A stretch of 64,000 nucleotides of DNA from Candidatus Nomurabacteria bacterium (GTDB taxonomy: Bacteria > Patescibacteriota > Minisyncoccia > Phycocordibacterales > SBAW01): positions 130,803 through 194,802 of the forward strand of contig CALQZS010000001.1 of the NCBI GenBank assembly GCA_943349945.1. The letters are read 5' to 3'. How positions within the stretch are numbered: the first letter of the stretch is position 1; each line of letters begins with the position of its first letter. The notes below the pieces were generated by a model. It was not told the origin of the DNA, made no database searches, and was given only the letters and a program-made list of their open reading frames with translations. This document shows, piece by piece, positions 13,485-49,764 of this stretch. The position numbers were made by a program, and so were the translations under genes.

Positions 13485-14027
13485 TTAAACTTTTGAAGAC
13501 AAGAAATCTTTGAGTGCGGCGAAGGGTTTTATTTGCAAATATGTTTTTTCGTACTCAGCCTCGTTCATTTGCGCACGGGTTTGTGTGCAGCCGCTTGGAA
13601 TAAATATTTTGTCCCAGCCGTATCCTCCATCCCCCATTGGGGTTTGCGCTACCTCGCCGTCCATAGCACCTTCAAAAAGTTTGAGTGTCTCGCCGTCGTA
13701 ATATCCAAACACACACTTGGCCGTCGCTTTGCGGTTTTTGTCATTAAGCATCGAACAGATACTTTCAAACGAGAGGCGCTCGATAAAGAATTTTATAAAC
13801 GGCCCGGGCAAACCGCCCAACGCCTCAAACTCGAGCGACACGTCTTCGACAATAACGGGCGTCTTAATTTTCTCATACGCCTGCCGTACCTTGTGCCCCA
13901 CAATCTCTTTTAAATCCATCGATTGCAGCTCGTCCAAGTCGAGCTTTACATGGCTCACAGGCAACCCCAAATACCGGGCCAAGTAGTCGGCCTTTTTTTG
14001 GTTACCGGTGATGAAGGTGATTTGCAT
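13485..14027 (-). CDS. rdgB: Non-canonical purine NTP pyrophosphatase (HAM1/RdgB family)
   Basis: MQITFITGNQKK...VEDVSLEFEALGGLPGPFIKF matches HAM1 signatures. Confidence 0.85.
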   Translation of the reverse strand: MQITFITGNQKKADYLARYLGLPVSHVKLDLDELQSMDLKEIVGHKVRQAYEKIKTPVIVEDVSLEFEALGGLPGPFIKFFIERLSFESICSMLNDKNRKATAKCVFGYYDGETLKLFEGAMDGEVAQTPMGDGGYGWDKIFIPSGCTQTRAQMNEAEYEKTYLQIKPFAALKDFLSSKV

Positions 14028-14036
14028 TGTGGTAAA

Positions 14037-14474
14037 TTACATCTTCCTCGAGTCATACGCCCAATGCAACAGCGCTTGCCGCTGTTTTGGGCGACAAAAA
14101 ATATCTCCAGTTCTACAATTATTTTTGATTTGCATTATATGCCTACGCATAGCGAGCCACCTTTTTATTTGCTTCTCGTCATCATCGGTCCTACGACCCA
14201 TAAAATATCTGCAGTACCACTGAAACCACCCGCGCGGGTCTTGCGGATGTATCCAGCCTTTTGCCTGCCATACCGCAAGCGACTGACTCGCGTTTATGCC
14301 AAAGTAATTCAGCTCTTTGTGCCGCTTCCCATCGGGTGATAATTTTGCACTCTTCCACCAACCTTTTGGGAACTCCTTTGGCTTGTCAGAAAAATATAAT
14401 CCACCGAACACACCAAGCTCGAGCATCTCTTTTGGCGTCAGGTCCGGCGTAAAGCGCGGGTCGAATTTCGTCAT
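14037..14474 (-). CDS. Conserved-looking hypothetical protein
   Basis: 145-aa soluble Trp-rich ORF (GWWKSAKL, RGWFQWYCRYFMGRR); family not recognised. Confidence 0.5.
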   Translation of the reverse strand: MTKFDPRFTPDLTPKEMLELGVFGGLYFSDKPKEFPKGWWKSAKLSPDGKRHKELNYFGINASQSLAVWQAKGWIHPQDPRGWFQWYCRYFMGRRTDDDEKQIKRWLAMRRHIMQIKNNCRTGDIFCRPKQRQALLHWAYDSRKM

Positions 14475-14480
14475 AGTTTG

Positions 14481-15245
14481 TTATTTCCTCGGCAATGGGA
14501 TAAATATACTTGTTTTCCTTTTGTACTCTGCAAACTCAGGGTTCCCCTCCAGTTTCTTTTCAAGCATCGGAACGCCAGACACTTTCAAGATCAAAAAAGT
14601 TATAGTCATAGGCCCAACAATACCAAGCCAGGCGCCGGGTACAGAGAGAGCGATGAGCCACAGCCCCCACCACTGCACTACCTCGCCAAAATAATTTGGA
14701 TGACGAGTGTACGCCCACAACCCGCTTTGCATCAACTTTCCCTTGTTCTCTGGATTTTTAATAAACCGCGCAAGTTGTGCATCGCCCAAAGCTTCAAAAT
14801 AAAAACCAACAAGCCACACAGCTACGCCTAGAAAATCGAGCAGCACAAGACTCGGCCCAGCATTTTTGTTGATAAGCAGTACCGGCGAAACAATGAGGAA
14901 CAAAAACAGGCCTTGCAAAAGATACACTTGAAAATACGAACGGATATAAAACCACTTGCCCCATTCTTTCCTCCAAGCTAGATAGCGATAGTCCTCTGCT
15001 TTGCCTTTGTTGCGTCTGTGTATGTGCCACGCTAAACGCAAACCCCAAATACTTACCAACACTCCTACCAACATCCCTCGTATACCAGAATCACCGGAAA
15101 GAAAAAAGGATGCCCCTGTCATCAGTACAAACCCGAGCCCCCACGCCACATCGGCCACATCGTTTCTTTTCCTAATCAAAGAAACCACGAACCATAGGCT
15201 CATGTACACAAGCAGTATGGCGATAAGAGTTACAAAATAACTCAT
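14481..15245 (-). CDS. DUF1295 / steroid 5-alpha-reductase-like membrane protein
   Basis: Motifs ADVAWGLGF, YRYLAWRKEWG and GLWAYTRHPNYFGE. The start at 15245 (MSYFV) overlaps the upstream stop by 4 nt. Confidence 0.75.
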   Translation of the reverse strand: MSYFVTLIAILLVYMSLWFVVSLIRKRNDVADVAWGLGFVLMTGASFFLSGDSGIRGMLVGVLVSIWGLRLAWHIHRRNKGKAEDYRYLAWRKEWGKWFYIRSYFQVYLLQGLFLFLIVSPVLLINKNAGPSLVLLDFLGVAVWLVGFYFEALGDAQLARFIKNPENKGKLMQSGLWAYTRHPNYFGEVVQWWGLWLIALSVPGAWLGIVGPMTITFLILKVSGVPMLEKKLEGNPEFAEYKRKTSIFIPLPRK

Positions 15246-15640
15246 AAACCGATCTTGGTTGCGATGAAGTAGGTTACCGCAGAAACAGACGCCGCGAGCA
15301 CTGCACCCCACACTAAGTCAACGATGGTTACAAGAAGCGGCCAATCTTTGGTGACGGCAAGGTTAGTAAGGTCGTACGTTGCATAACAAACCAAACCAAA
15401 TAGCGCACCGAACAAAAGTGCGTGCGTCCATGAATTCTTCTCTATGGCCGGCATAATTACAAAAACCACAAGACCGACAACAAACAAAAGATAAAAGATA
15501 ATAGCCGCCGTCCAGTTTACATCTGGCTTTAGGAGCGGACCGATTTGTTTAGCGTAAAAACCCTTTGCAACGAGTCCAAGCCACACCATGTCGATGGCAA
15601 AGAAAACAGGGAGTGCTATTGCATAGAGTTTTATGAACAT
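15242..15640 (-). CDS. DUF2177-like small membrane protein
   Basis: 132 aa with four predicted TM segments, and AIDMVWLG and YATYDLTN motifs. Confidence 0.6.
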   Translation of the reverse strand: MFIKLYAIALPVFFAIDMVWLGLVAKGFYAKQIGPLLKPDVNWTAAIIFYLLFVVGLVVFVIMPAIEKNSWTHALLFGALFGLVCYATYDLTNLAVTKDWPLLVTIVDLVWGAVLAASVSAVTYFIATKIGL

Positions 15641-15651
15641 AAAAGATAGGA

Positions 15652-16302
15652 TTAATTAATAATTTCCACCAACACTTCATTGCGATACATCCACGGTGGA
15701 GTCCATGGTGCGCTGTATCCAGCGTATGCAGTGCTTCCCTTTGTCGCCACTCCATCACGGGCAAGTGCCGAAGCTAATTTTTCTTGCATGTCTTTTACCC
15801 GCGTATCCGAGCGATACCCCGAGAATTGCAGTACTGCATATTTCTTGGTAGGGATCATCACGATTTTCACTCTCGGATCATTTGGTGTCGGTAATGTTTC
15901 AAGGGTGTACGAGCGGGGCATACCAAAAGATATTATTTGCGAGTCACCATCAGTCGTCGCTACTACCGGTGCAGTCATAGCAATATTTTCTGATGTTTTT
16001 TCGCCTCCTACTTTTTGCGCGATGACTGGAACGGTCATCGCTATACTTTCTTTTTTTGTATTTCCGCCAAAGATATACCCAGCAACAATTCTAAAACCAT
16101 TATTCATAGATTCTCCATAAGAACCCTTTACCGTAGTCTGCGCTACGATATGTGCCGGATATTCTCGTATTTCATATCCATCTTTTATCTCAATGACAGT
16201 ATAGTCAGCTTGCTCAACACGCGAACCAAAAAATCCTGAGATAGACCAAAGCACCACAATAACAAGCAAAGCGATAAGTATAGTGCTCATATTTTTATTC
16301 AT
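15652..16302 (-). CDS. SOUL heme-binding family protein with N-terminal anchor
   Basis: YEIREYPAHIVAQT...FRIVAGYIFGGN...IAMTVPV...IAMTAPV pattern typical of SOUL/HBP. Confidence 0.75.
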   Translation of the reverse strand: MNKNMSTILIALLVIVVLWSISGFFGSRVEQADYTVIEIKDGYEIREYPAHIVAQTTVKGSYGESMNNGFRIVAGYIFGGNTKKESIAMTVPVIAQKVGGEKTSENIAMTAPVVATTDGDSQIISFGMPRSYTLETLPTPNDPRVKIVMIPTKKYAVLQFSGYRSDTRVKDMQEKLASALARDGVATKGSTAYAGYSAPWTPPWMYRNEVLVEIIN

Positions 16303-16393
16303 ATAGCTTTAGTATATAATAGTATATACTAAACTATAATAATATTAGTTTAGTATATGCATTAACAATATTTAATCAATTTAAAATAAATAT

Positions 16394-16795
16394 ATGCAAA
16401 ATATCGTAGAAACAGCTGTCGCAGCAGGATCATTTAAAACACTGGTCACTGCAGTGCAAGCGGCAGGATTAGTAGACACTCTATCTGGTGCAGGTCCCTT
16501 CACTGTATTTGCTCCAACTGATGAGGCTTTCGCCAAAATTCCAAAAGAGACTCTCGACGCAGTCCTTGCGGATAAAGCAAAGCTAACATCTATACTTACG
16601 TACCATGTGGTGGCAGGAAAAGTAATGGCTTCTGATGTAATGGGCCTGACTTCTGCAAAGACAGTACAAGGTGATGAAGTTAAAATAGAAACTGCAGATG
16701 GAGTTATGGTAAACGACGCCAAAGTAGTACAAACAGACATAGAATGCACAAACGGAGTAATCCATGTCATCGATTCAGTCTTGATGCCAAAATAA
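16394..16795 (+). CDS. Fasciclin (FAS1) domain protein
   Basis: Motifs [17 protein letters not shown] and [13 protein letters not shown]. Confidence 0.9.
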
Positions 16796-16813
16796 ATACA
16801 TCCGAAATAAAAA

Positions 16814-16850
16814 TAAAAAACTCTAACTTTTGTTAGAGTTTTTTATTTTT
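16814..16850. terminator. Bidirectional terminator between the convergent fasciclin and PCD genes
   Basis: A-run, then CTCTAAC-tttt-GTTAGAG, then a T-run. Confidence 0.8.
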
Positions 16851-16855
16851 ATTGA

Positions 16856-17245
16856 TTAGGCGTCTATTTTTGCCGCAAGAATAAAATCATTTTGAGAGAG
16901 TCCGTTAATTGCATGGGTGGACAGCGTGAGCTCTACAAATTTGTAGTTTTTCAGATATATGTCCGGATGATGCCCCTCTGATTCAGCCAAAACGCCAACC
17001 TTATTTACAAAAACAAGAGCTTCATTGAAGTCCTTAAAACTATATCGCTTGGCGATACTTTTAGCATCAAGCGAAATATCCCAGCCGGGAATTTGCTTGC
17101 ATAATATATCTGCCTCTATCTTTGAAAAAGGAATGACACCACCATCGCATGCCATGCATTTTTGTTGAGTCAGTGGCGAGTTAGTTTTAGGAGTAGGGGC
17201 CTGACTCTGTATAGTTGTATGTTCCATATGCTTGTAGTATAGCAA
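16856..17245 (-). CDS. Pterin-4-alpha-carbinolamine dehydratase (PCD/DCoH) with N-terminal extension
   Basis: The C-terminal ESEGHHPDIYLKNYKFVELTLSTH is the PCD signature. Confidence 0.8.
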   Translation of the reverse strand: MLYYKHMEHTTIQSQAPTPKTNSPLTQQKCMACDGGVIPFSKIEADILCKQIPGWDISLDAKSIAKRYSFKDFNEALVFVNKVGVLAESEGHHPDIYLKNYKFVELTLSTHAINGLSQNDFILAAKIDA

Positions 17246-17268
17246 AATTAAGAATGGCTACAAATTTT

Positions 17269-18939
17269 TTATTTCGTATCAATATGATTCCACGCAAAAC
17301 CCTTGTCTCCATACACTTTTTTACCTGGGTTTAAAATAGCAAGCGGGTCAAAAATATCTTTTGTCTTTTCAAAGAGACGTACGATCTCAGGGGTAAACAT
17401 CTGCGAAAGGTACGAGGTACGTAAAAGTCCGTCATTATGTTCTCCAGACATAGAACCTCCATACTGAAATACGAGAGTATAGACTTCATCCATGAGTGTA
17501 TGGAGAGTCTCAACTATTCCTTCTTTATGAATGTCAATAAGCGGAATAATATGAAAGTTTGCATCTCCCATATGTCCGGCCACAGTATAAATAAGATCAT
17601 ATTTCGAAAAAATAATTTCAAGTTTGGGAAGAAACTCCGGGAGATCTTTTGTGTGTACGACAATATCATCAATTGTGGGTGCCGTTCGATACCCTCGCAA
17701 CTTCTGGCGAAGCAGGTTGAAGCTTTCGCGCCTGAATGTCCAATACTTTTTTGCTTCTTGTTCCGAGTGCGTCAATGTAATAGGAAATCCGAATACCTTC
17801 ATCTCGTTATATGCTGACTGTACCTGCTCTGCAACTTCTTCTTCAGTATCCCCTGCAAATTCTGCCATGAGAATTATCTTTGGAACTCCGCCAGTGATTG
17901 CCATCCAAAACTCAGGCAAAAATTGGAACCCGAGCGTCAACATAGTACCCCCCATGCTTTTTGCAATTGAACCAAAGAATTTAATCGCTATTTTAAACGT
18001 ATGATCATCATAAGATTCGATGGTTTCAGGTGTATGTTTTAAAAGTCTTGGAATTATTTCTCCTAGTTGCGTTGTGGCTGGCAAAAACATAACGAGCATT
18101 CTGGAATGTTTTTTGGGGACAATTCCACTCAATGTCGCTTCAGTCACACAGGCAAGGGTTCCCTGACTGCCCACAACGAGCTTTGATAGGTCAAATACTC
18201 CTGATTCTTTATCGTAGACATTCCAAAGATAGTACCCTGAAGAATTTTTTGTTACTGTCGGTTTTGCTTGTTGCAGTACATCATAGTTGTCCTTTACAAG
18301 GGCAAATATCTCTCGATGAATGCGCCCGCTTTCAGTTTGTTCTTCGCATTTTGCGATAAGTTTCTCTGCATGAAGTGGTTCTAGAACATCTTCTTCTCCA
18401 TTTGCAAATACAACACGAAGCGAGCGAACATACTTTTCCGTCTTTCCATAGGTAAGTGTCTTTTCACCTCCTGAGTTATTAGAGACAATACCTCCAATCG
18501 CAGCCAAATCACGAGACGCCGGATAGCTTGGCAAAAGCCAGCCGTGCGCAAGAGTCTTTTTCTCAAAATCACTATAGTATACCCCCGGCTCTGTTATGGC
18601 TTCTGTGTCGGTGACAGAAAATACATGATTCATGTATCTCATTGTGTCTACGACGATGGATTCCGAAAGTGGGCCACCGGTCATACAGGTACCGGCGGCA
18701 CGCATGGTGAGGGATAACGGTACACCCTGATCTATATCTTTAGTTTTTTTTGCATGCACATAAGCAACAAGTTTTGCAATGTCTTCTTTACTTTTTGGGT
18801 AGACAACAATGCGGGGTTTTACATAAAAAAGGCTTGTGTCTCGCGCAGCTTTTTCTCGATCACTGTCTAAGATAGAAATATCTCCTTTGATTATTGTACG
18901 CAAATCACCAGCGACATCCGTATAAAAAATTTCATTCAT
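17269..18939 (-). CDS. FAD-linked oxidase (GlcD-like FAD-binding dehydrogenase)
   Basis: 556 aa with an N-terminal FAD-binding PCMH-type region (RAAGTCMTGG, IVSNNSGGEK). Confidence 0.75.
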   Translation of the reverse strand: MNEIFYTDVAGDLRTIIKGDISILDSDREKAARDTSLFYVKPRIVVYPKSKEDIAKLVAYVHAKKTKDIDQGVPLSLTMRAAGTCMTGGPLSESIVVDTMRYMNHVFSVTDTEAITEPGVYYSDFEKKTLAHGWLLPSYPASRDLAAIGGIVSNNSGGEKTLTYGKTEKYVRSLRVVFANGEEDVLEPLHAEKLIAKCEEQTESGRIHREIFALVKDNYDVLQQAKPTVTKNSSGYYLWNVYDKESGVFDLSKLVVGSQGTLACVTEATLSGIVPKKHSRMLVMFLPATTQLGEIIPRLLKHTPETIESYDDHTFKIAIKFFGSIAKSMGGTMLTLGFQFLPEFWMAITGGVPKIILMAEFAGDTEEEVAEQVQSAYNEMKVFGFPITLTHSEQEAKKYWTFRRESFNLLRQKLRGYRTAPTIDDIVVHTKDLPEFLPKLEIIFSKYDLIYTVAGHMGDANFHIIPLIDIHKEGIVETLHTLMDEVYTLVFQYGGSMSGEHNDGLLRTSYLSQMFTPEIVRLFEKTKDIFDPLAILNPGKKVYGDKGFAWNHIDTK

Positions 18940-18972
18940 ACATTTATTATAACATTATCGGACTCATTTTAC

Positions 18973-19445
18973 TTAGCGTTTGCTTCGAGTTTTTCTTCGC
19001 TGTATATACCAGTACACATAGAGAGAAAGTAGAAGGATTATATTCGGAATAAATATGATTGGTTGACCCCAGGATATTCCATTGATATGGAAGTCTGAAA
19101 TCGGCCACAAAAAAGGCGTTGGGAAAAAGGCAAAATCGTGTGTAGGTATATCAACTAAAATATGAAGTGGCCACGCGAGCGTAAGCTTGGCAAAATGCTT
19201 TTTGCCAAGAATAACGCATAAACGACCAAGCTATGAGTAATACCATAGACGGTGAAGACGTACGGCGGAATCGTTTCTAAGCTTGGCCGACCCATTGCGC
19301 CACCAGAAACTAGATTTATTATAAAAAGAGGCGCGAACGCCAAGAGGTCTGGCCCTATACCAAAGAGAAATGCAGTCACATAATCCCGCCTGCGCATGCG
19401 ACCAAATGCAACACCTCCATATAATCCGTGAGAGATAATGTCCAT
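18973..19445 (-). pseudogene. Membrane-bound metal-dependent hydrolase (DUF457/YdjM-like) split by a 1-nt frameshift
   Basis: The track ORF 19155..19445 stops at 19155. An adjacent frame continues open as ...KKHFAKLTLAWPLHILVDIPTHDFAFFPTPFLWP... to a stop at 18973-18975. The frames join at a homopolymer (T5 on plus, 19199-19203). Confidence 0.65.
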
Positions 19446-19473
19446 ACATTTATTATACTATTTGTATGTGAAA

Positions 19474-20934
19474 TTATTTTTTAGACAGATACTCCTTTGC
19501 AATTTTTAAATAATTTTCTTTTTTCTTTTTTTCCATCTTATCAAAAAGTCTCGGCATCATCGATAGTCGATGATTACTTGTGAAAAAGTCACGGTGACTA
19601 GCTATGAAATTCCAATACAGTGCAGTCCACTTCTCTTCCCAATCGCCACCAGTATAATCTGACATTTTTTTAATGTAATTGCTACCCGAGATATATGGTT
19701 TGGTAGCAAAAATACCACCATCAGCGAACTGACTCATCCCATATACATTTGGTACCATTACCCAATCATACGCATCAACATACATTGCCATAAACCATTG
19801 ATACACATAATCGGGATTAACCTGAGAAAGCAACATAAAGTTACCGATAACCATCAATCGTTCGATATGATGATTGTATCCATAGTGCAGAGCTTTCTTG
19901 ATAGCGCTGTCGACCGGAGCAATACCAGTATCTCCAGTCCAAAATCCTATTGGCAAGTTGCGGGAATGTTTCCAAAAATTCTTCGTGCGCATGACGGCAC
20001 CATCACACTCATAGGAAGCGCGCATAAACTCACGCCACCCAATGATCTGTCGTACAAAACCTTCGAGTGAATTTATAGGTATAGCGTGAGTATCTGCATA
20101 TACTATTGCACTATCGATTACCTGCCTTGGGTCGAGCAATCCAATATTTATGAGAGCTGACAATGTAGAATGAAAAAGCCGTACGCTTTTCGTAGAAAGC
20201 GCGTCCTCATACACACCAAAATCTGCAAAGCGGTCTTCTAAAAATACCTGCAAAAATTTTTTGGCATCCTTGTGTGTATATGGTAGCCAGCAGGCTATCT
20301 CTCCATATTTTTCAGCTTGTATTGTATCGAGCCACTTCTTCATTTTTGATACATCAAAATCATTTTCAAAAACAGTATCCTTGGGGAGAGTTGTATCTCG
20401 AGCAAGTTTTTTTCGATTGTCTGCATCAAAGCTCCACGCTCCCCATCTGGGCTTTCCATGTCCGTCCATCAAGATACCCAAGTCCACTCGAATTTTCTTG
20501 TAGAACATCGCCATATTTTTCTTTGAGCTTTTGTATCTTGCTATTGATTCCTCCTTTGGCAAAATAAAAAGTGGTGACTCATACCAAACCCGCTTTATCT
20601 TGGAAGCTGTTATAGCCCGCTCCAAATAGAAGTCAGTAGTATCGACAATATGAAGTTCTTGTATCCCTTCTTTTTTTAAATAATCAAAAATATCTTTCGT
20701 CTTCGGATACTGTTCAATCGTCAGGCATTTTACTTTGTACCCCTCTTTTTTCAAAAGCTCTGCATATGCGCCCATACTTAATTTGTGCAAAATTAGCTTT
20801 TGATAATGAATGGGGTTGTGCGACAGAATCAAGGGCTCTTCAATCAAAAAAATAATCCGTGCTTTTTGTATAGCCGGTGATTTTATAAAAAGTTGATGAG
20901 GATAGACCAATGTTGCTTCTTTCATAGTATTCAT
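19474..20934 (-). CDS. Cryptochrome/photolyase-family protein (photolyase-related, COG3046-like)
   Basis: 486 aa with an N-terminal LVYPHQLF start and a C-terminal W/Y-rich FAD-binding-like region. Confidence 0.7.
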   Translation of the reverse strand: MNTMKEATLVYPHQLFIKSPAIQKARIIFLIEEPLILSHNPIHYQKLILHKLSMGAYAELLKKEGYKVKCLTIEQYPKTKDIFDYLKKEGIQELHIVDTTDFYLERAITASKIKRVWYESPLFILPKEESIARYKSSKKNMAMFYKKIRVDLGILMDGHGKPRWGAWSFDADNRKKLARDTTLPKDTVFENDFDVSKMKKWLDTIQAEKYGEIACWLPYTHKDAKKFLQVFLEDRFADFGVYEDALSTKSVRLFHSTLSALINIGLLDPRQVIDSAIVYADTHAIPINSLEGFVRQIIGWREFMRASYECDGAVMRTKNFWKHSRNLPIGFWTGDTGIAPVDSAIKKALHYGYNHHIERLMVIGNFMLLSQVNPDYVYQWFMAMYVDAYDWVMVPNVYGMSQFADGGIFATKPYISGSNYIKKMSDYTGGDWEEKWTALYWNFIASHRDFFTSNHRLSMMPRLFDKMEKKKKENYLKIAKEYLSKK

Positions 20935-20937
20935 CTA

Positions 20938-21204
20938 TCAGGTTGATAGTATTAAAATCAAAATAGCGAAGTATACGATCAGATAAAAACGATAGAAATT
21001 AATCACCCGCAACTCTGCACTCTTCGTGCGCTGATGAAAGCCAAAAAGCACTTTGATCTCCTCCCAAAAAACGGGCTTTACATTAATCCACCAGCTATCA
21101 GTTTGATAGACCATCTTCCTAAATCGACTGCGAAACAATCCCAAAGGAAAACTCCAGATAAAAAACGCAACGATGGCAATCGTGTGTATGGTTATAGTAT
21201 CCAT
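20938..21204 (-). CDS. Hypothetical small membrane protein
   Basis: 88 aa with two hydrophobic segments. Its stop lies 3 nt upstream of the photolyase-like gene's start. Confidence 0.45.
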   Translation of the reverse strand: MDTITIHTIAIVAFFIWSFPLGLFRSRFRKMVYQTDSWWINVKPVFWEEIKVLFGFHQRTKSAELRVINFYRFYLIVYFAILILILST

Positions 21205-21325
21205 TTATGCCTCTTCAGTCCTTACTTCTATTATAAACTTTATTCTCTCAAGAGCTACCATTCCCTCCCCCTCCTTTTTGCGAACCTCGACCTTCAGGGG
21301 CAAAAGATACTTTGGCCATAAATTT

Positions 21326-22225
21326 TTACTCCACCGGACAGGTGTTTTTGCCCATCGCGGCGTAGAACCCACACCAGCTAAATATTGCTTCAAAGAATGC
21401 AAGGCCGGAGAAGAAGATGAGGATGGGGCTCCAGGTGGTGGTGATGGCCCATAGGAGCAATGCAATGCCAATGGCGAGGCGGACGAGTCGGTCGGACTTG
21501 CCGATATTTTTAGCAACTCCACGCACAGAGTTTTTAGCAACCTTTTTCAAAATCGCGCGGTAGACGAAGCCCACGATGAACGCAAGAATATATATAATGA
21601 CAATCAGTCCCCACCCAAAGGGCGAGAGGATAAAGCCGATTGGCGATTCGTTAAAAAAATCCTTTTTAATCTGCGGGATGAGCGTGAGTGCGTTTAAGCC
21701 TTCTTTGCCGTCAAACTTCTCTATCTCACCGATGGCGAGCGAGTACTTGCTGTCGTTGTTGGGGCTTGTCACACGGATCTCGTAGATGCCTACATCAGCA
21801 CGCGCTTTATACTCTGGTCCTTGCCAGTAGGTGTCGTAGCCAAATGGTTCAAAAAACTGTTTCCATGCAAATGTCGCGCCATCGAGCACGGCGATTTGCT
21901 TGCCGTCTTTTAGTACCACAGCGGAGACATCTTTCTTTTGCCCTGCAATGTCTGGCACCAAGACTCCGACATACAGATTAAACGCTTGCTTCGCATCTAT
22001 AGTATATACATCCGGCTCGCCCATGAGCTTGCCATAATATGCTTTGGAAACTTCGGGGTCAGTAACTGATGTAAGTCTATCCTCTGTAATTCGAGGCTGA
22101 TGTGCGGAAGCCAAGCTCGGAGTCAACGTAAATATAGAGACAAACAACGCAAGCAGCGTGAGTGATAGTAGTTTGGAATTTATGTTATATCCGAAAACGT
22201 TCAAGATGCACCTAGTATACAGCAC
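21326..22225 (-). CDS. Secreted/membrane protein with a C-terminal DUF2892 (YgaP-like) domain
   Basis: Signal peptide, an extracytoplasmic domain, TM segments, and a C-terminal ...RLAIGIALLLWAI...WCGFYAAMGKNTCP. Confidence 0.6.
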   Translation of the reverse strand: MLYTRCILNVFGYNINSKLLSLTLLALFVSIFTLTPSLASAHQPRITEDRLTSVTDPEVSKAYYGKLMGEPDVYTIDAKQAFNLYVGVLVPDIAGQKKDVSAVVLKDGKQIAVLDGATFAWKQFFEPFGYDTYWQGPEYKARADVGIYEIRVTSPNNDSKYSLAIGEIEKFDGKEGLNALTLIPQIKKDFFNESPIGFILSPFGWGLIVIIYILAFIVGFVYRAILKKVAKNSVRGVAKNIGKSDRLVRLAIGIALLLWAITTTWSPILIFFSGLAFFEAIFSWCGFYAAMGKNTCPVE

Positions 22226-22230
22226 CTAGT

Positions 22231-22599
22231 CTAGAAGTAAGGGATGAGTAAACTAAGTCCCTTCCCCATCAGAAAGCTGTATATCAGCAACCCAATGAAC
22301 GGTAGAGGCACCAGCCATAAAAACCATCTTGGATGGTCAGGTTTTTTTGAAAAAACCATGTACCAATTCAACGCAAATATAAGAGGTGTACAAATTGACA
22401 AGAGAGCACTTGTACCAAAACCGAGCAGTCCAAACACTTCCCCACTACTCCATACGAAAGAGTCGTCCTGCACAATAAACAAAAAGGCTACGCTCGACCA
22501 AACAACAGCTATTAGAAACACCTTTACTAAAAGCGCTTCGTAAATTCCAATAGCAGCCAAAACTATTTTTACAGGCGTGTTGATGGTGAATCTATGCAT
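22231..22599 (-). CDS. Hypothetical polytopic membrane protein
   Basis: The start at 22599 (MHRFTINTPVKIV...) was chosen because the longer track ORF would overlap a tRNA. Confidence 0.5.
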   Translation of the reverse strand: MHRFTINTPVKIVLAAIGIYEALLVKVFLIAVVWSSVAFLFIVQDDSFVWSSGEVFGLLGFGTSALLSICTPLIFALNWYMVFSKKPDHPRWFLWLVPLPFIGLLIYSFLMGKGLSLLIPYF

Positions 22600-22627
22600 G
22601 TAGGTAATTATATACCCATAACCGTTG

Positions 22628-22714
22628 CGGAGAGAGCGAGATTCGAACTCGCGGGCCCAATTAAGGGCCGACAGTTTAGTAAACTGTTGATTTAAACCAC
22701 TCATCCATCTCTCC
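22628..22714 (-). tRNA. Type II tRNA-Ser; anticodon reads ACU by hand folding
   Basis: Fold: GGAGAGA-TG-GAT-GAGTGGTTTAA-ATC-A-ACAGT-TTACTAA-ACTGT-C-GGCCC-TTAATT-GGGCC-C-GCGAG-TTCGAAT-CTCGC-TCTCTCC-G. It has a long variable arm and a G73 discriminator. Confidence 0.8.
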
Positions 22715-22926
22715 ATATATTCGCACTGCTCAAATGGAGCTGCTCGGCGCAGATCGATGGAATCGTGGTCGGCACATGGTGCCGGCTTGAGAAGAAGCAG
22801 TTCTTCTCTTCGCCCATCTCATCCATCTCTCCTTGCCCTTGAGGATACTACAGTATATAGAGGAGCTCAATTAAAGCCTTTTTGAGCGTGTAAAGTAGCC
22901 CCTATTATGGTACTGTGGCGTGTATT

Positions 22927-23011
22927 GGAGACGTGTCAGAGTGGTCGAATGTGCCTCCTTGCTAAGGAGGTAGGGCGCAAGCCCTCGTGGGTTCGAATCC
23001 CACCGTCTCCG
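22927..23011 (+). tRNA. tRNA-Ser (GCU)
   Basis: Acceptor GGAGACG...CGTCTCC, anticodon arm CCTCC-TTGCTAA-GGAGG, long variable arm, T arm GTGGG-TTCGAAT-CCCAC. Confidence 0.9.
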
Positions 23012-23298
23012 CAAAGCTAAATTTTGATATATTCTCCTATCTAAATTTTGCTTATGTGTGAACGGGAGAGGGATTCGAAGGACGGAAGAAAAGCTCTGGG
23101 AGAGCTTTTCTGAGTCGGGGTCGCGAGATTTTTCAGCAGAAAAATACTTGTGACCGAATCCCACTGTCCACAAATACTACGCGGCGTAGAATTGAGTCGA
23201 AGCCGAATCGTTTTAATCGTCTCCGCTTAGTTTTTTGTAGTGTTCTACTGTAGAGCATTTTATGTGGTATAAACAAGCCATATCATTAATTTTTTAAT

Positions 23299-23931
23299 AT
23301 GTCTCGACAAACGATATTAATATTAGTCCTTATTGTTTTGGTGGTTGGCGTAAGCGGGTATTGGTATTTTAGTCACCAAAGCAAGGTTACCGACGTACCT
23401 ACAGAGGTGGTTGCAACGACAAATACTACCCATGTAGAAGAAGTAAAGGTGGAAAATAATCGAAAAAGTGCCGTAACGTCTAATGGTTTGGAATTTGACC
23501 CGGCTAAGGTACAGCCCGGGGAAAAATTCGGTGCGTTTACAGTTATTGCTTCGAGCGCTTATACGATTGGCGATGAACACTCTTACTCAGTAAGTTTCAA
23601 AGGACCTGTAAATATCCAGGGTGTATTAAACAATTTTGAGCCTAGTATGTGTGGTGCAGTACTGGAGATTTCTACATCAACTTCCGAAACCTTGCCTAGA
23701 GTGAGCGGTGAAAAGGTGGGGAGCATGAATGTATACCTTGACCTAGATGGTTTGCCAGAGGCAGAGCGTGTTACTTATACGAGCGCCGGTTTTACAACCC
23801 CTTCCGGGCAACTACTCCAAGAGGGTGATGTGTTAGAAGTAACTGTTGATACGTTTTTGGCTTCGCACCAAGGGAAAGATTGTAGCGGCAAGAGGATACA
23901 GGTCACCTCATTTAAGAAGCTTTCTATCTAA
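23299..23931 (+). CDS. Hypothetical membrane-anchored extracytoplasmic protein
   Basis: N-terminal TM segment (ILILVLIVLVVGVSGYWYF); no motif recognised. Confidence 0.55.
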   Translation: MSRQTILILVLIVLVVGVSGYWYFSHQSKVTDVPTEVVATTNTTHVEEVKVENNRKSAVTSNGLEFDPAKVQPGEKFGAFTVIASSAYTIGDEHSYSVSFKGPVNIQGVLNNFEPSMCGAVLEISTSTSETLPRVSGEKVGSMNVYLDLDGLPEAERVTYTSAGFTTPSGQLLQEGDVLEVTVDTFLASHQGKDCSGKRIQVTSFKKLSI

Positions 23932-24075
23932 CTGCGCAGCAAAATAGAAAACTTCGCCTCAGTACATATTTGTGACCGAGTCTCACTCTCTCTCCGCCAT
24001 ACATATACAACTTTTTTAAGAGTTGATATCCGCATTGACAATATCAACTAAACAGTATAAACTGTTGACATTCAT

Positions 24076-36531: not shown

Positions 36532-36603
36532 TGGGCGCGGCAGGGATTGAACCTGCGACCAGTCGTGTATAAGACGACCGCTCTACCACTGAGCTACGCG
36601 CCC
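36532..36603 (-). tRNA. tRNA-Ile with UAU anticodon
   Basis: Fold: GGGCGCG-TA-GCTC-AGTGGTA-GAGC-G-GTCGT-CTTATAC-ACGAC-TGGTC-GCAGG-TTCAATC-CCTGC-CGCGCCC-A. Confidence 0.85.
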
Positions 36604-41652: not shown

Positions 41653-42018
41653 GGGGATGCCAGGCCTAGACAATGAAGACGCCTGTTGAATGCGCGCAGT
41701 AGAAGTCTGGACCTTCTTAAAAATCCGGAAACAATAACTGCAAAAAACAGTGTTTCGCCGTATTTCGCGGCGAACGACTTCCAGTTCGCGTTCGCGCGAG
41801 CGTAAGTCGCATCTACCCTTCCTCTCTCTTGCGGGTTGGGATAGGTGTTATATAGCAAGAGTATAGTTGCAAGAGCCGCTCTGACTTGCATCCGAACATA
41901 AGAGCTGCAGGAAGTTATGATTTCGTTTGCTTTGCCCATAACAGCCTAAAGAAACAACAAGCGAACTACACTACGTAGAAGCTTCAGCAGCACTTCATTG
42001 CACGGCGGTTCAATTCCG
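41653..42018 (+). ncRNA. ssrA: tmRNA
   Basis: The 5' GGGGATG pairs with the 3' CATCTCC, including G3:U. T arm GGCGG-TTCAATT-CCGCC. Internal tag ORF GCA AAA AAC ... GCG TAA. Downstream of smpB. Confidence 0.85.
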
Positions 42019-42032
42019 CCCATCTCCACATA

Positions 42033-44306: not shown

Positions 44307-44969
44307 CTACTCTGTGGGCTGCACAAACCGGAATGACGCCCGGTTTATTTTGTCTTTTTGTACCAGCTCTATCACCCGCTCTACCAGTGCCTTTGGGTCC
44401 GAGTCGAACACGATACGGTCGTTGGGGCGATGGCCACTTTTGAGTATCCCTTTAATGACCTCGTCCGTCTCCCAATCTGCCTCTAAAATGCCAATAGGCT
44501 TTTTGTCTTCAAACGCGATAGTAAATTCGTGTATGGTCCCTATGCGTCCGCAGCCAAAAAGCAGCGCGTCAGACGACCGGGTAAAAATCAGGTCCCGCCC
44601 AGGGAAGCCAAACCCCGTGTACACAATAACGTCCATGTATTCCACCGGTAGGTTATACATCTCGATGTGCTCTTTTTCTGAGTTAGCAGGAGAAAACCCA
44701 ACGGACACCCCGCCCAATTCCTTGGCGCCCATAGCCGACCACAAGGGGAAGCCCGTAGTCGCCCCCGTTACAAGCACCGCGCCGTGGCGTGCCACTTCGC
44801 GGCCCAGCTCCAAACCTTTGTCGTACGCATCAATGCCGCAGTGGCCTGTTTCTGCCGCGCCCGAGACACCCAACTTTATCTGCAGATGCGGATGATTAGG
44901 CGACATAGGCTGCACAGTACCTGCTTCTTTTGTCTCTGGAGCAGGCGCAGTAGTAGTGGTCATATGCAC
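44307..44969 (-). CDS. LOG/TIGR00725-like Rossmann-fold protein
   Basis: LVTGATTGFP and GCGRIGTIHEF resemble the LOG-family PGGxGTxxE region. Confidence 0.6.
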   Translation of the reverse strand: MHMTTTTAPAPETKEAGTVQPMSPNHPHLQIKLGVSGAAETGHCGIDAYDKGLELGREVARHGAVLVTGATTGFPLWSAMGAKELGGVSVGFSPANSEKEHIEMYNLPVEYMDVIVYTGFGFPGRDLIFTRSSDALLFGCGRIGTIHEFTIAFEDKKPIGILEADWETDEVIKGILKSGHRPNDRIVFDSDPKALVERVIELVQKDKINRASFRFVQPTE

Positions 44970-46418: not shown

Positions 46419-46578
46419 AAAAAAACCCGCACCAGGAGCCCGGTGCGGACTTTTTTCGGACTCCGGAAGCAAGTGTCTACCGTGTATTAGGTGGGTGCTC
46501 TAAGCGGTACACCACGGTGCCCCGCCACAGCGAGCTCCCGGTAGATTCACTTAAGGACATTTGCCTCCGGGGTCCTGC
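46419..46578 (-). ncRNA. Candidate long-hairpin ncRNA of about 160 nt, unclassified
   Basis: An extended -10 (TGaTACAAT, 46583-46591 on minus). A closing helix 46563-46575 with 46458-46470 (12/13 pairs) plus inner helices. Terminator CCGCACC...GGTGCGG followed by T7. Confidence 0.5.
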
Positions 46579-46620
46579 CGCTATTGTATCAAATTTTTAC
46601 TACAATCCCCCACCCCTTCT

Positions 46621-46645
46621 AACCCACAAGTCTGACTTGTGGGTT
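46621..46645. repeat. 25-nt palindromic REP, copy 1 (central T)
   Basis: aacccacaagtcTgacttgtgggtt. Confidence 0.9.
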
Positions 46646-46675: not shown

Positions 46676-47539
46676 TTATTTTGTCACAGCAGCCTTTCGC
46701 ATATATACAGAGACGTCTCCATATACGCCCCCAAGCAATGCTCCATCTTTTCCTGATGCCACCAGAAGTTCTATGTTTTTATCTTTAAGGGCAGCAAGAA
46801 TTGCATCGCCACGCACATCTCCCAGTGTGGCGTACATGCGACGAAATGCCTCAAAATCTTTAATAAAACAATCGCCCCCAGCCCCACGTCCTCCACTATG
46901 TACAGGGTTAGTGTGGCTAGCACCGACACGAGGGTCATGCACCAACGCATCGCGCACTCCTTCCCAGTCTCCTCCTTTCGCTTGCACCAGGTCATAGAGC
47001 AAGTTAGTAAACATGACTTTGGTGTATAAAAAACAATTGCCTGCATATTTGACCAACTCTGCATCACAGGCCAAAAGTATACGCGCGTACGGCGCCTCAG
47101 GCAGCACACTAAGCACTGCGCGGGCTTTTTCTTGGTACACAGCAGAGTCTACGGGGATTCCTACAATATTACGATGAGGGTGCGCTGCATCATGCGCCGC
47201 CGTAGCCTCGGTCAAAAACTCAGGGCTGTGTAGCACAAAAATGTCAGGGTATATTTGCTGAAACATCTCTGTCGTGCCTGGCAGTATGGTTGACTTAATG
47301 ACCGCCACTTTTCCTTTGCCCACAAGAGGCAGTACGCGCGCAATAATGGAGCTGTCGAACCCCTCTGGAGTGGTAGGGGTTGGCACCGCAATAAACACAA
47401 TGTCGCACCGGGCTATACGATCTTTGTTTGCTCGATATGGCTCTTCAAGCGCGTAACGTACAACCGTATAGCCACGGTTTTCAAAATCATCTGCATAATG
47501 TCTGCCGATCCACCCCTGCCCAATAAATCCTATGTGCAT
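46676..47539 (-). CDS. UDP-glucose/GDP-mannose dehydrogenase-family protein (short)
   Basis: N-terminal GFIGQGWIG Rossmann motif and GGDCFIKD catalytic-Cys motif. Confidence 0.6.
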   Translation of the reverse strand: MHIGFIGQGWIGRHYADDFENRGYTVVRYALEEPYRANKDRIARCDIVFIAVPTPTTPEGFDSSIIARVLPLVGKGKVAVIKSTILPGTTEMFQQIYPDIFVLHSPEFLTEATAAHDAAHPHRNIVGIPVDSAVYQEKARAVLSVLPEAPYARILLACDAELVKYAGNCFLYTKVMFTNLLYDLVQAKGGDWEGVRDALVHDPRVGASHTNPVHSGGRGAGGDCFIKDFEAFRRMYATLGDVRGDAILAALKDKNIELLVASGKDGALLGGVYGDVSVYMRKAAVTK

Positions 47540-47596: not shown

Positions 47597-47621
47597 AACC
47601 CACAAGTCAGACTTGTGGGTT
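47597..47621. repeat. 25-nt palindromic REP, copy 2 (central A)
   Basis: aacccacaagtcAgacttgtgggtt, 1 nt from the RAYT stop. Confidence 0.9.
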
Positions 47622-47622
47622 A

Positions 47623-48321
47623 TTATTCCAGAATCGCCAAACTGCTCAATTCTGGCACACGTCCCAAGATTAAATCTTGAGCATTCGTACGAAAATCTGC
47701 CGGTGAACAAAATATTTCTGCGAGAATATCCTTTTCAACAACTGCCGCATATATAGAGTTTTCTCCAGCATACTCTTTTAAGCTCGAAAAAGGATACGTA
47801 TCGACAGCCCACTTCCACGCCTCATTAAAATTTTTTGCAGCAGTCACATATCCCCCTGGATATAATTCGAACACATTTTTTACTACTATATACGGGACCA
47901 CGTAACGCAAATGTCGGTCTGTCTCAACTGTACGACTACGATATGCACCTTGGAAAATACTACCTCGCTCACTATATTTTTCGTTAAAATATCGGGACAT
48001 ACTGCCACAAACACTTTGCATAAATCGCGCCACCCCTCTTTCTTGAGTTTCTTTAAGCAAAAGGTGGAAATGGTTCGGCATCAACGTCCAAGCAAGTACC
48101 TTTACTAATGGTCGACGTTCTGGCCAAACAGCAGGGCGTTCAAACATTCCCAGATCACAAATATCTCTCTCCCAAAAATCGGAGCGATGTTCGTCGTTTA
48201 AATAATAAAGGAGTTTTACAAAACGCCGCTTATCAGCCTCATCACGAGTGATAGGCATGCCGCGCGCTCCGCGTTTAACAACATGAACAAAAGAACCCAC
48301 TTCATGAGGTTCCACTCTCAT
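47623..48321 (-). mobile_element. IS200/IS605-like Y1 (HUH) transposase of the RAYT type, second copy
   Basis: LMPNHFHLLL HUH motif and GSIFQGAYRSR Tyr motif; bracketed by palindrome copies 2 and 3. Confidence 0.8.
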
Positions 48322-48346: not shown

Positions 48347-48370
48347 AACCCACAAGTCAGACTTGTGGGT
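48347..48370. repeat. Palindromic REP, copy 3 (central A)
   Basis: aacccacaagtcAgacttgtgggt. Confidence 0.9.
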
Positions 48371-48377
48371 GCAAAAA

Positions 48378-48977
48378 CTACTCGTCGATGCCGAAGCGCT
48401 TGTACTTGAAGATGGTTTGTTTACCAAACCAGTGCTCGATTTCGTGCTTTGCTTCCTCTGGAGTCTCAGACGCATGGACCAAGTTGTAGACTGCGCGTTT
48501 TTCGATGTTTGCAGAAATAGCAGAGTCTGCCGAGTAGTCGCCGCGGATGGTGCCCATCTCTGCCAAGTACGGCATAGTAGGCCCCACGATTTTGCGCACC
48601 ATGTCCACCGCGTGCACGCCCTGCACCACCATCTTGACCATAGGGGCCGAGATCATAAAGTCGATAAGCCAGCCGCGTACCACTTTACCAATTTTAAGAA
48701 GGTCGTCGGTACCAAAGTCTTTTTTCACATCATGTCCGTACTTTTGGTAGGTGCCGGTTGTCTTTTCGCCAATGCGCTTGAGCCACGCCTCGTCTTTGGG
48801 ATAGTGTTTGTCCATCTCGGCCTTAGACGGCTGGAACATCTCTAGAGCTACGACTTTGAGGTCGCGCTGCTCCATGCGTTTAATGATCTCGCCCGTGAGC
48901 CCTTTGCGTACGCCGTCGGGCTTTATGAGCACAAAAGTTTTTTCCTCCTTGGGATGTTGCATGCGAGCACTATACAA
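48378..48977 (-). CDS. ndk: Nucleoside diphosphate kinase (with an internal insertion)
   Basis: FVLIKPDGV and NLVHASE motifs. Confidence 0.8.
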   Translation of the reverse strand: MYSARMQHPKEEKTFVLIKPDGVRKGLTGEIIKRMEQRDLKVVALEMFQPSKAEMDKHYPKDEAWLKRIGEKTTGTYQKYGHDVKKDFGTDDLLKIGKVVRGWLIDFMISAPMVKMVVQGVHAVDMVRKIVGPTMPYLAEMGTIRGDYSADSAISANIEKRAVYNLVHASETPEEAKHEIEHWFGKQTIFKYKRFGIDE

Positions 48978-48999: not shown

Positions 49000-49764
49000 T
49001 CAAAACGGCGTCAACACCTCGCACCCGTCTTTTGTCACCATCAGCGTTTGCTCAAACTCAGTACTGCGCAAACCGTCGCGCGTGTGGTAGGTCCACTCGT
49101 CTTTTGCCAAGGTGATGTGCGGCTTACCCTCGCAAAAAATAGGCTCTATGGCGATGATTAACCCTTCTTTAAGAATCTCCCCCGTGCCCGCCTCCCCTTC
49201 GTTTGGTATGTAGGGTTTTTCGTGCGGGACTTTACCCAGCGCGTGGCCCCCTAGGTCTTTTGCAATAGTAAAGTTGTATTTGCGGGCAACACGCTCGATA
49301 GCCGCACCGATGTCGCCCACATGCGCACCCGCTTTGACCACCTTGAGCGCCTCGGCAAGCGCCTCGCGCGAGGCATTAAGGAGCTTCATCCCCTCTGCAT
49401 CTACCGCGCCCACCGGCACCGTCAGCGCTGCGTCGGCAAAAAAGCCATTGTAAGAAACCCCAAGGTCGAGCATCACCAAGTCGCCGTCTTTGACTACCTT
49501 GTCTTCTGTGGGGATGCCGTGCACCACTTCGTCGTTTATAGAAACACACAGCACGGCAGGAAACGGGTACGCAGCCCCGCTTGGTTTGTAGTTTAAAAAC
49601 GCGGGCTTGCCACCCTGCTCTTGTATGATGCGCTCGGCAGCCAAGTCGAGCTCCGCAGCAGTGACCCCAGGCACCACCAGCTTTGCCGTCTCGGTGAGCG
49701 CATGCGCCAAGATGCTGCCTGCTTTGCGCAAATTATCTATGTCTGACTGGGCGGTTGCTATCAT
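49000..49764 (-). CDS. map: Methionine aminopeptidase type I
   Basis: Metal-ligand pattern VHGIP...DLGV...GHALG...IAIEP. Confidence 0.9.
   Translation of the reverse strand: MIATAQSDIDNLRKAGSILAHALTETAKLVVPGVTAAELDLAAERIIQEQGGKPAFLNYKPSGAAYPFPAVLCVSINDEVVHGIPTEDKVVKDGDLVMLDLGVSYNGFFADAALTVPVGAVDAEGMKLLNASREALAEALKVVKAGAHVGDIGAAIERVARKYNFTIAKDLGGHALGKVPHEKPYIPNEGEAGTGEILKEGLIIAIEPIFCEGKPHITLAKDEWTYHTRDGLRSTEFEQTLMVTKDGCEVLTPF

Follow-up and report, generated by a model that had tools for sequence, protein, structure and literature searches.

A candidate miniaturised 6S RNA gene, conserved across Paceibacteria

Introduction

6S RNA (Rfam RF00013), which imitates an open promoter and restrains RNA polymerase, is itself well known, and the Ms1 RNA of Actinobacteria, about 300 nt long, is a 6S-like rod. 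Ms1 binds RNA polymerase, as the core enzyme and not the holoenzyme, and is restricted to Actinobacteria (PMC9130861). For the characterised 6S cycle see PMC8876501 and PMC10578484; the 6S RNAs described are ~200 nt long (PMC10578484). In vitro, engineered truncated 6S-1 RNAs are bound by sigma-A RNA polymerase, serve as templates for product RNA and are then set free (Ganapathy et al. 2022, PMC8876501). When cut to the bubble and two short arms, 6S-1 goes through the full cycle in vitro with ~10-fold lower affinity (PMC8876501). Bacillus 6S RNAs are matured and degraded by RNase J1, a beta-CASP enzyme (PMC10578484).

A literature search found nothing relevant on 6S RNA in the candidate phyla radiation (CPR), Patescibacteria or Parcubacteria. 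To our knowledge, few regulators are known in the CPR lineage, with its very small genomes. Here we describe a small RNA gene within a 64-kb stretch of DNA, the whole of which was analysed and is called the window below. The RNA most resembles 6S RNA, especially the 6S-1 type of Bacillus subtilis. What would be new is a naturally miniaturised form that lies below database thresholds and is apparently general in Paceibacteria.

Results and Discussion

The features of the locus are collected in Table 1. The extended -10 promoter lies where an initial annotation of this DNA had placed it, and transcription is predicted to start at A46576 or G46575, 7-8 nt past TGATACAAT; the first base of the hairpin (GGACC..., from 46575) is 7 bases past the -10 box. 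A simple sigma-70 scan found no -35/-10 pair at the RNA promoter, which fits a promoter relying on the TG extension. The rod measures 118 nt, with a closing helix of ~19 bp, a central bubble of ~16 + 15 nt and a short terminal arm. Within the closing helix, the annotated pairing of GGACCCCGGAGGC (46575-46563) with GCUUCCGGAGUCC (46470-46458) holds at 12 of 13 positions, with one G-U pair and one C/A mismatch. The 5' bubble strand contains the nearly invariant GUCCUUAA, and the 3' bubble strand opens with the conserved ACYU of CACCCACYU and is able to fold locally into a small hairpin. The rod's own 3' strand (...GGAGUCC) ends at 46458 and is followed by a 7-base spacer, GAAAAAA (46457-46451), whose six A's belong to the terminator A-tract. 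The terminator stem CCGCACC-n8-GGUGCGG was also found as annotated (46448-46427), followed by G and then by U7 at 46425-46419; the transcript reaches 158 nt only with this hairpin counted. The claim that the interval holds no ORF stands, as none of at least 60 aa was found and the short plus-strand ORFs (42-45 aa) lack support. Folding of the 162-nt stretch gave -77.7 kcal/mol, against -56.0 +/- 4.0 kcal/mol in 200 dinucleotide shuffles (z -5.5), none of them as good.

Table 1. Positions of the RNA gene, its elements, its neighbours and other RNA genes in the window.
Feature	Positions	Strand	Basis or remark
Extended -10 promoter TGATACAAT	46591-46583	-	read directly; TGnTAnAnT kept in homologs
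Predicted primary transcript, 158 nt (6S-like rod and terminator hairpin)	46576-46419	-	sequence and folding
Closing (downstream-like) helix, 5' strand GGACCCCGGAGGCAAAUGUC	46556-46575	-	covariation; predicted product-RNA template
Central bubble, 5' strand CUUAAGUGAAUCUACC	46540-46555	-	homologs align to Rfam 6S model positions 38-58
Terminal (upstream-like) arm: GGG-A-GCUC / GAGC-A-CCC, internal loop, variable apical hairpin	46493-46539	-	covariation
Central bubble, 3' strand ACCUAAUACACGGUA	46478-46492	-	aligns to 6S model CCCACCUgg
Closing helix, 3' strand GACACUUGCUUCCGGAGUCC	46458-46477	-	ground-state consensus fold, covariation
Alternative-pairing segment GGUAGACACUU	46481-46471	-	can pair with 5' bubble strand AAGUG..UCUACC
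Intrinsic terminator: A-tract, stem CCGCACC / GGUGCGG, loop of 8, U7	46419-46456	-	
beta-CASP metallo-beta-lactamase ribonuclease, 463 aa	44980-46371	-	downstream of the RNA
SLOG/LOG-like protein	44307-44969		further downstream
Truncated UDP-glucose dehydrogenase ORF	46676-47539		upstream of the RNA
Y1 (REP-associated-type) transposase	47623-48321		upstream of the RNA
ndk	48378-48977		upstream of the RNA
map	49000-49764		upstream of the RNA
tmRNA	41653-42031	+	Rfam, 101.9 bits
tRNA	36532-36603	-	Rfam gathering threshold
tRNA	22628-22714	-	Rfam gathering threshold
tRNA	22927-23011	+	Rfam gathering threshold

The locus encodes a real, conserved structured RNA, far beyond chance. It was present in 33 of 33 related loci examined, from Adlerbacteria, Nomurabacteria, Kaiserbacteria and other Paceibacteria. 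These loci came from three collections, assembled by protein synteny (9 genome loci), by an RNA-only metagenome pattern (19 loci) and by a protein-only choice (5 loci). An RNA homolog was found in all nine genome loci that have a beta-CASP relative (63-76% identity) together with its upstream region. The RNA-only pattern, built from invariant bases, was run over the metagenome collection and matched 103 stretches, 80 of which were listed as loci. A covariance model made from the first ten sequences (R1) picked out 19 true homologs among these 80 listed loci, at 74-123 bits with antisense scores far lower. The other 60 listed matches were attributed to chance, as was a weak model match of 18.7 bits (L014), which lies inside a 160-aa ORF. 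The protein-only loci, including a Kaiserbacteria genome and a 750-kb contig, yielded the RNA in five of five cases (53-100 bits). For the window rod, R1 gave 132.2 bits on the minus strand versus 41.9 bits on the plus strand and found a single copy in the 64 kb; sense-strand scores far exceeded antisense scores across the homolog collections.

Covariation in homologous loci had been proposed as a check in the initial annotation, and the RNA proved to be conserved and covarying in every related locus examined. Over 26 distinct aligned sequences, 92.4% of base-pair cells were paired, compared with 38-45% when the 3' partners were slid by 1-3 columns. Compensatory changes were seen at 21 pairs, with both sides changed in 105 cells, and none of 500 column shuffles reached any of five covariation measures. 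RNAalifold gave a rod-shaped consensus fold. Helix 1 (closing) has 19 pairs, with 93% of cells paired and 8 pairs changed on both sides. Helices 3 and 4 of the terminal arm were paired in 99% and 89% of cells and contributed 13 compensatory pairs. The outer closing helix and the apical hairpin covary freely, the hairpin also varying in length, and the inner part of the closing helix, GCAAAUGUC, is nearly invariant. Over 30 sequences GCAAAUGUCCUUAAGUG, GGGAG, (R)CACCCACYU and AGACACUUGCUU are nearly invariant; GUCC and GAC/GGAC, like GGGAG and CACCCACYU, are invariant or nearly so.

Two short helices had been drawn inward of the closing helix in the initial annotation. Both sequences are present, but AAGUG/CACUU and UCUACC/GGUAGA are incompatible with the inner closing helix (UGUC/GACA, GCAA/UUGC) and belong to an alternative conformer, not to the ground-state rod. 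Fused into one, they form an alternative helix that excludes the inner closing helix. When template bases were blocked in silico, the best fold paired UAAGUG-AA-UCUACC of the 5' bubble with GGUAGACACUUG of the 3' strand. This helix reaches -12.5 kcal/mol in the window (z -4.2 versus shuffles) and -8 to -16 kcal/mol in about 26 of 30 sequences, and it beats shuffles of the 5' strand with z scores of -3.3 to -5.8. Its variable half is compensatory between lineages (CUACC/GGUAG, UUUUGC/GCAAGA, UUUUGCA/UGUAAGA, CUUCC/GGGAG), and its strands fit within a lineage and not across lineages. In B. subtilis 6S-1 the corresponding helix is the central bubble collapse helix (PMC8876501). The alternative helix is absent from L117 and L011, which have a strong 3'-bubble hairpin instead; this hairpin, of the CCUGG/CCAGG type, also occurs in L010, L054, L076 and L078. 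The Paceibacteria RNA has two sub-types, with either a cross-strand collapse helix or a strong 3'-bubble hairpin, a division that recalls the two modes of release of 6S RNAs, one of the E. coli type and one of the Bacillus type.

At the Rfam gathering threshold, a scan of the whole window returned no 6S RNA and only the tmRNA and three tRNAs of Table 1. At E<=10 the window RNA locus gave no 6S match, only terminator look-alikes (Leu and Thr leaders), and none of the copies scanned reached the RF00013 gathering score of 46.4 bits. Three homologs did match RF00013, however. The match of L010 (23.2 bits, E 0.0037) covered the model end to end from 1 to 187, that of L117 from Kaiserbacteria scored 20.7 bits (E 0.014), and that of L011 scored 10.6 bits (E about 4). 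For L010 and L117, 6S was the best of 4227 families. No 6S match at E<=10 was obtained for L034, nor any in a pooled scan of L078, L054 and L076, where weak matches were probably lost to a larger search space and to stricter filters. Rfam, proposed earlier as a check, speaks through relatives and not through the window copy, and these sub-threshold yet specific matches support the 6S-like layout that had been suggested for the locus. No Ms1 match appeared in any focused Rfam scan.

The alignments of these homologs tell more than their scores. The invariant GUCC, GGGAG, CACCCACCU / (G)CACCCACCUGG and GGAC of the family occupy 6S positions written in upper case (the most conserved ones) to either side of the central bubble, with GGGAG and CACCC aligned to conserved positions 59-63 and 126-131. 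Around the bubble the 6S consensus reads GAgCC-(5' bubble)-GGGagccc ... gggcaCCCACCUgg-aAcagCa-GGuUC, and the Paceibacteria RNA reads GUCC-(5' bubble)-GGGAGcuc ... gagCACCCACCUGG-...-CCAGGAC. Side by side, these readings place the family's invariant bases on the most conserved bases of 6S, in the same structural places. The CCUGG..CCAGG hairpin, first seen independently in some lineages, falls on the 3'-bubble hairpin of 6S. In the alignment of L010 to the 6S model, ~40 closing-arm positions and ~27 terminal-arm positions are deleted.

Several structural features are shared with 6S RNA, above all with the 6S-1 type. Both are stand-alone rods with a closing helix, a large central bubble and a terminal arm, a fold that covariation maintains in the Paceibacteria RNA. 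On its terminal side the bubble is bordered by GGG/CCC (GGG...CCCACCU), and on its closing side by G-CC/GG-C. The 3' bubble strand begins with CACCCACCU, after which some lineages have a small 3'-bubble hairpin, and the distal part of the 5' bubble strand can pair with the 3' strand of the closing helix, as in the collapse helix. The capacity to rearrange, through a 3'-bubble hairpin or a central bubble collapse helix, was found in silico. There are also differences. 6S RNAs are ~185-200 nt, whereas both arms of the Paceibacteria RNA are cut down; its rod is ~60-70 nt shorter than described 6S RNAs and falls below a length of ~160-200 nt; the transcript comes to 158 nt only with the terminator hairpin counted. 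Scores against the 6S model are 0-23 bits. Only the Paceibacteria RNA has a nearly sequence-invariant inner closing helix, and only there does the terminator hairpin remain on the predicted primary transcript. Since truncated 6S-1 completes its cycle in vitro, a ~120-nt rod is mechanistically plausible and small size is no obstacle in principle. Those truncated RNAs are laboratory constructs, of which the Paceibacteria RNA would be a natural, conserved counterpart with predicted activity.

From the transcription signals, the covarying rod, the invariant bases matching the 6S consensus and the lineage-matched alternative helix, we conclude with a probability of roughly 70% that the locus is a miniaturised, diverged 6S RNA (ssrS-type) gene of Paceibacteria, its product predicted by analogy to bind RNA polymerase. 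Outside the loci examined, genomes of the clade may still hold a canonical 6S RNA. The strongest competing explanation is a lineage-specific structured RNA with another job, whose likeness to 6S is superficial; it might act as a decoy or partner of an RNA-binding protein or a ribonuclease, or by base-pairing through the invariant CCUUAAGUG loop. This would agree with the position of every 6S match below the gathering score, with the silence of the window copy and with a rod much shorter than known 6S RNAs. The near-invariance of GCAAAUGUCCUUAAGUG and AGACACUUGCUU over the 30 sequences also suits sequence-specific recognition, and an inner closing helix so unusually invariant could point to a different sequence-reading partner. 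We nevertheless consider another job unlikely, because in three homologs that diverged separately the conserved bases, and the places they hold in the structure, are those of the conserved 6S core, with 6S at the top of 4227 families in two of the three. The lineage-matched alternative helix is moreover a rearrangement known for 6S (PMC8876501), and no candidate target or protein partner emerged.

As a miniaturised 6S RNA, the transcript would start at a sigma-70-type extended -10 promoter and end at a terminator, both its own. The rod would mimic an open promoter and sit in the active-site channel of RNA polymerase in its housekeeping holoenzyme form, with the 5' strand of the closing helix serving as template for a product RNA. 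Unzipping of the inner closing helix would free the 3' strand GGUAGACACUU to pair with the remaining 5' bubble strand (AAGUG..UCUACC), whereupon the central bubble would collapse and the polymerase would be released. We infer polymerase binding, product-RNA synthesis, the product start site and the release step from the likeness to 6S RNA. In E. coli 6S RNA the product RNA starts at U44, three bases past GAGCC. This analogy, together with the need for a purine start, suggests a start opposite U46554 or U46553. The predicted product RNA is 5'-A(A)GGACAUUUGCCUC; its 5' end, 5'-A(A)GGACAUUUGCC, would be identical to the plus strand from 46553/46554 upward.

The RNA occupies the same place in all loci, after ndk and before the beta-CASP RNase gene, with insertions on either side, and the ancestral gene order as read from these loci is secY-adk-map-ndk-[RNA]-betaCASP-SLOG. 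The beta-CASP RNase of the window is a generic aCPSF/Cas14-like protein that scores below every NCBIfam cut-off and is not RNase J. It is identical in GCA_943353435, its relatives are labelled Candidatus Nomurabacteria, Adlerbacteria, Kaiserbacteria and Paceibacterota, and beta-CASP homologs number in the thousands. The proteins flanking the RNA place the DNA in the Paceibacteria/Parcubacteria of the CPR. This neighbour is suggestive because RNase J1 acts on Bacillus 6S RNAs. The RNA might be something other than simply a small 6S, either forming a module with the neighbouring aCPSF-type beta-CASP RNase or representing a separate, Paceibacteria-wide 6S-convergent class with a different partner, both of which we regard as improbable. 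In the module version, maturation or degradation of the RNA, or of its product RNAs, would fall to the RNase. A functional link between the two is speculation, as the whole gene block is syntenic in the clade and the pair is split by a DUF2238 gene in several lineages.

Transcription signals and insertions support an independent gene, neither leader nor 3' UTR. Nearly all homologs keep TGnTAnAnT, at a distance of 6-7 nt from the base with which the closing helix starts. Most relatives have a -35 element, TTGACG, inside the last codons of ndk, with TGnTAnAnT 17 nt further; in the window this ancestral -35 was removed by a 1.8-kb insertion. The terminator stem differs in sequence between lineages with its pairing kept, and stem and U-tract occur in the homologs. 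Insertions on the ndk side measure 1.8 kb in the window, 1.4 kb in L009 and ~0.5 kb in L080 and L089, and on the RNase side a DUF2238 gene stands between the RNA and the beta-CASP gene in L011, L076, L118 and L120. In most beta-CASP genes a TATAAT/TATACT box precedes the start codon by 5-8 nt (window: TATAAT 46383-46378, ATG 46371). The annotated stand-alone ncRNA of ~160 nt is borne out by the conserved promoter, the covarying terminator, the two-sided insertions and the separate downstream -10 box. A 3' UTR element of ndk was rejected, as the RNA keeps its own -10 box across the 0.5-1.8 kb insertions of the window, L009, L080 and L089. A link to the nearby Y1 transposase was also set aside, since that gene occurs only in the window's own lineage and within the later insertion.

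The same evidence bears on whether the RNA is a cis-acting leader (a riboswitch, an attenuator or an autoregulatory RNase target) controlling the beta-CASP gene through the terminator. The order of promoter, structured RNA, terminator and gene is kept in most loci, as a leader would have it. L008, L084, L017 and L075 lack a clear -10 box, their weaker terminator (UUUUCUGU) is ~20 nt from the start codon, and some read-through into the RNase gene may occur there. We judge a leader very unlikely all the same. The terminator arm has no conserved sequence in common with the rod, and no conserved anti-terminator or other alternative pairing involving the terminator was seen. The DUF2238 insertions part the RNA from the RNase gene in four lineages, against the constant co-transcription with the regulated ORF that a leader would call for. 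The -10 box of most RNase genes fits a leaderless mRNA, whose start codon a read-through transcript would bury. The RNA is also equally close to ndk in most loci, starting 20-40 nt after the ndk stop codon.

Another universal rod-shaped RNA, chiefly small SRP (4.5S) RNA, can be dismissed: one long hairpin, ~115-120 nt in length, whose internal loops are asymmetric and which occurs once in the window, would suit it, yet six focused scans gave no SRP family match at E<=10, and the apical hairpin, the expected site of domain IV with its conserved symmetric and asymmetric loops and GNRA tetraloop, is the most variable part of the RNA and carries insertions. An RNase P fragment, 5S rRNA, a T-box, a K-turn and known ribozymes were, like SRP RNA, discarded for want of a model or motif match.

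If confirmed, the miniaturised 6S RNA would be the shortest natural one as far as we found. It would mean that evolution, and not only truncation in vitro, can strip both helical arms down to the bubble core, and it would provide a natural test case for the minimal requirements of 6S function. It would further be a housekeeping regulatory RNA across Paceibacteria, implying growth-phase control of RNA polymerase there. Current Rfam thresholds miss the whole clade, and the alignment made here could seed a sub-family model.

Several further features of the window and related loci were recorded. The insertion between ndk and the RNA gene is REP/RAYT-like and ~1.8 kb long; homology of the window to L004 breaks at 48379 and resumes at 46593. 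A 21-nt palindrome, CCCACAAGTC(A/T)GACTTGTGGG, is present in three exact copies (46623-46643, 47599-47619 and 48349-48369; 0.01 expected by chance), which bracket the Y1 transposase and the truncated UDP-glucose dehydrogenase ORF. On the RNase side, L029 and L034 (6000-6125) each have a short element, ending in long inverted repeats, in the interval that separates the RNA terminator from the start codon of the RNase gene; the L029 insert is flanked by duplicated ATG(C/A)AATC and resembles a miniature transposable element. The DUF2238 gene, which encodes a small membrane protein, lies at 2600-3000 in L011, 2113-2496 in L118 and 2104-2493 in L120, and is also found in L076.

The terminator hairpin is lengthened by pairing of its A-tract with its U-tract, in the window (46419-46456) and in all homologs. 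Its flanks covary (ACAGAG..UUCUGU, ACAUA..UAUGU, ACUAAA..UUUAGU, GCAAAAA..UUUUUGC), and selection therefore seems to act on terminator pairs beyond the usual termination point. The extended pairing could serve bidirectional termination or provide a 3' protective hairpin. The TATAAT/TATACT box of the beta-CASP gene also occurs in L004, L005, L069, L080, L033, L054 and others with no Shine-Dalgarno sequence, which suggests a leaderless beta-CASP mRNA conserved across many Paceibacteria. Elsewhere in the window, two of the three tRNAs have long variable arms. Both lie in a stretch at about 14000-24000 with a G+C content of 0.39-0.46, compared with ~0.52 elsewhere; this stretch may represent an island or a gene cluster of different composition.
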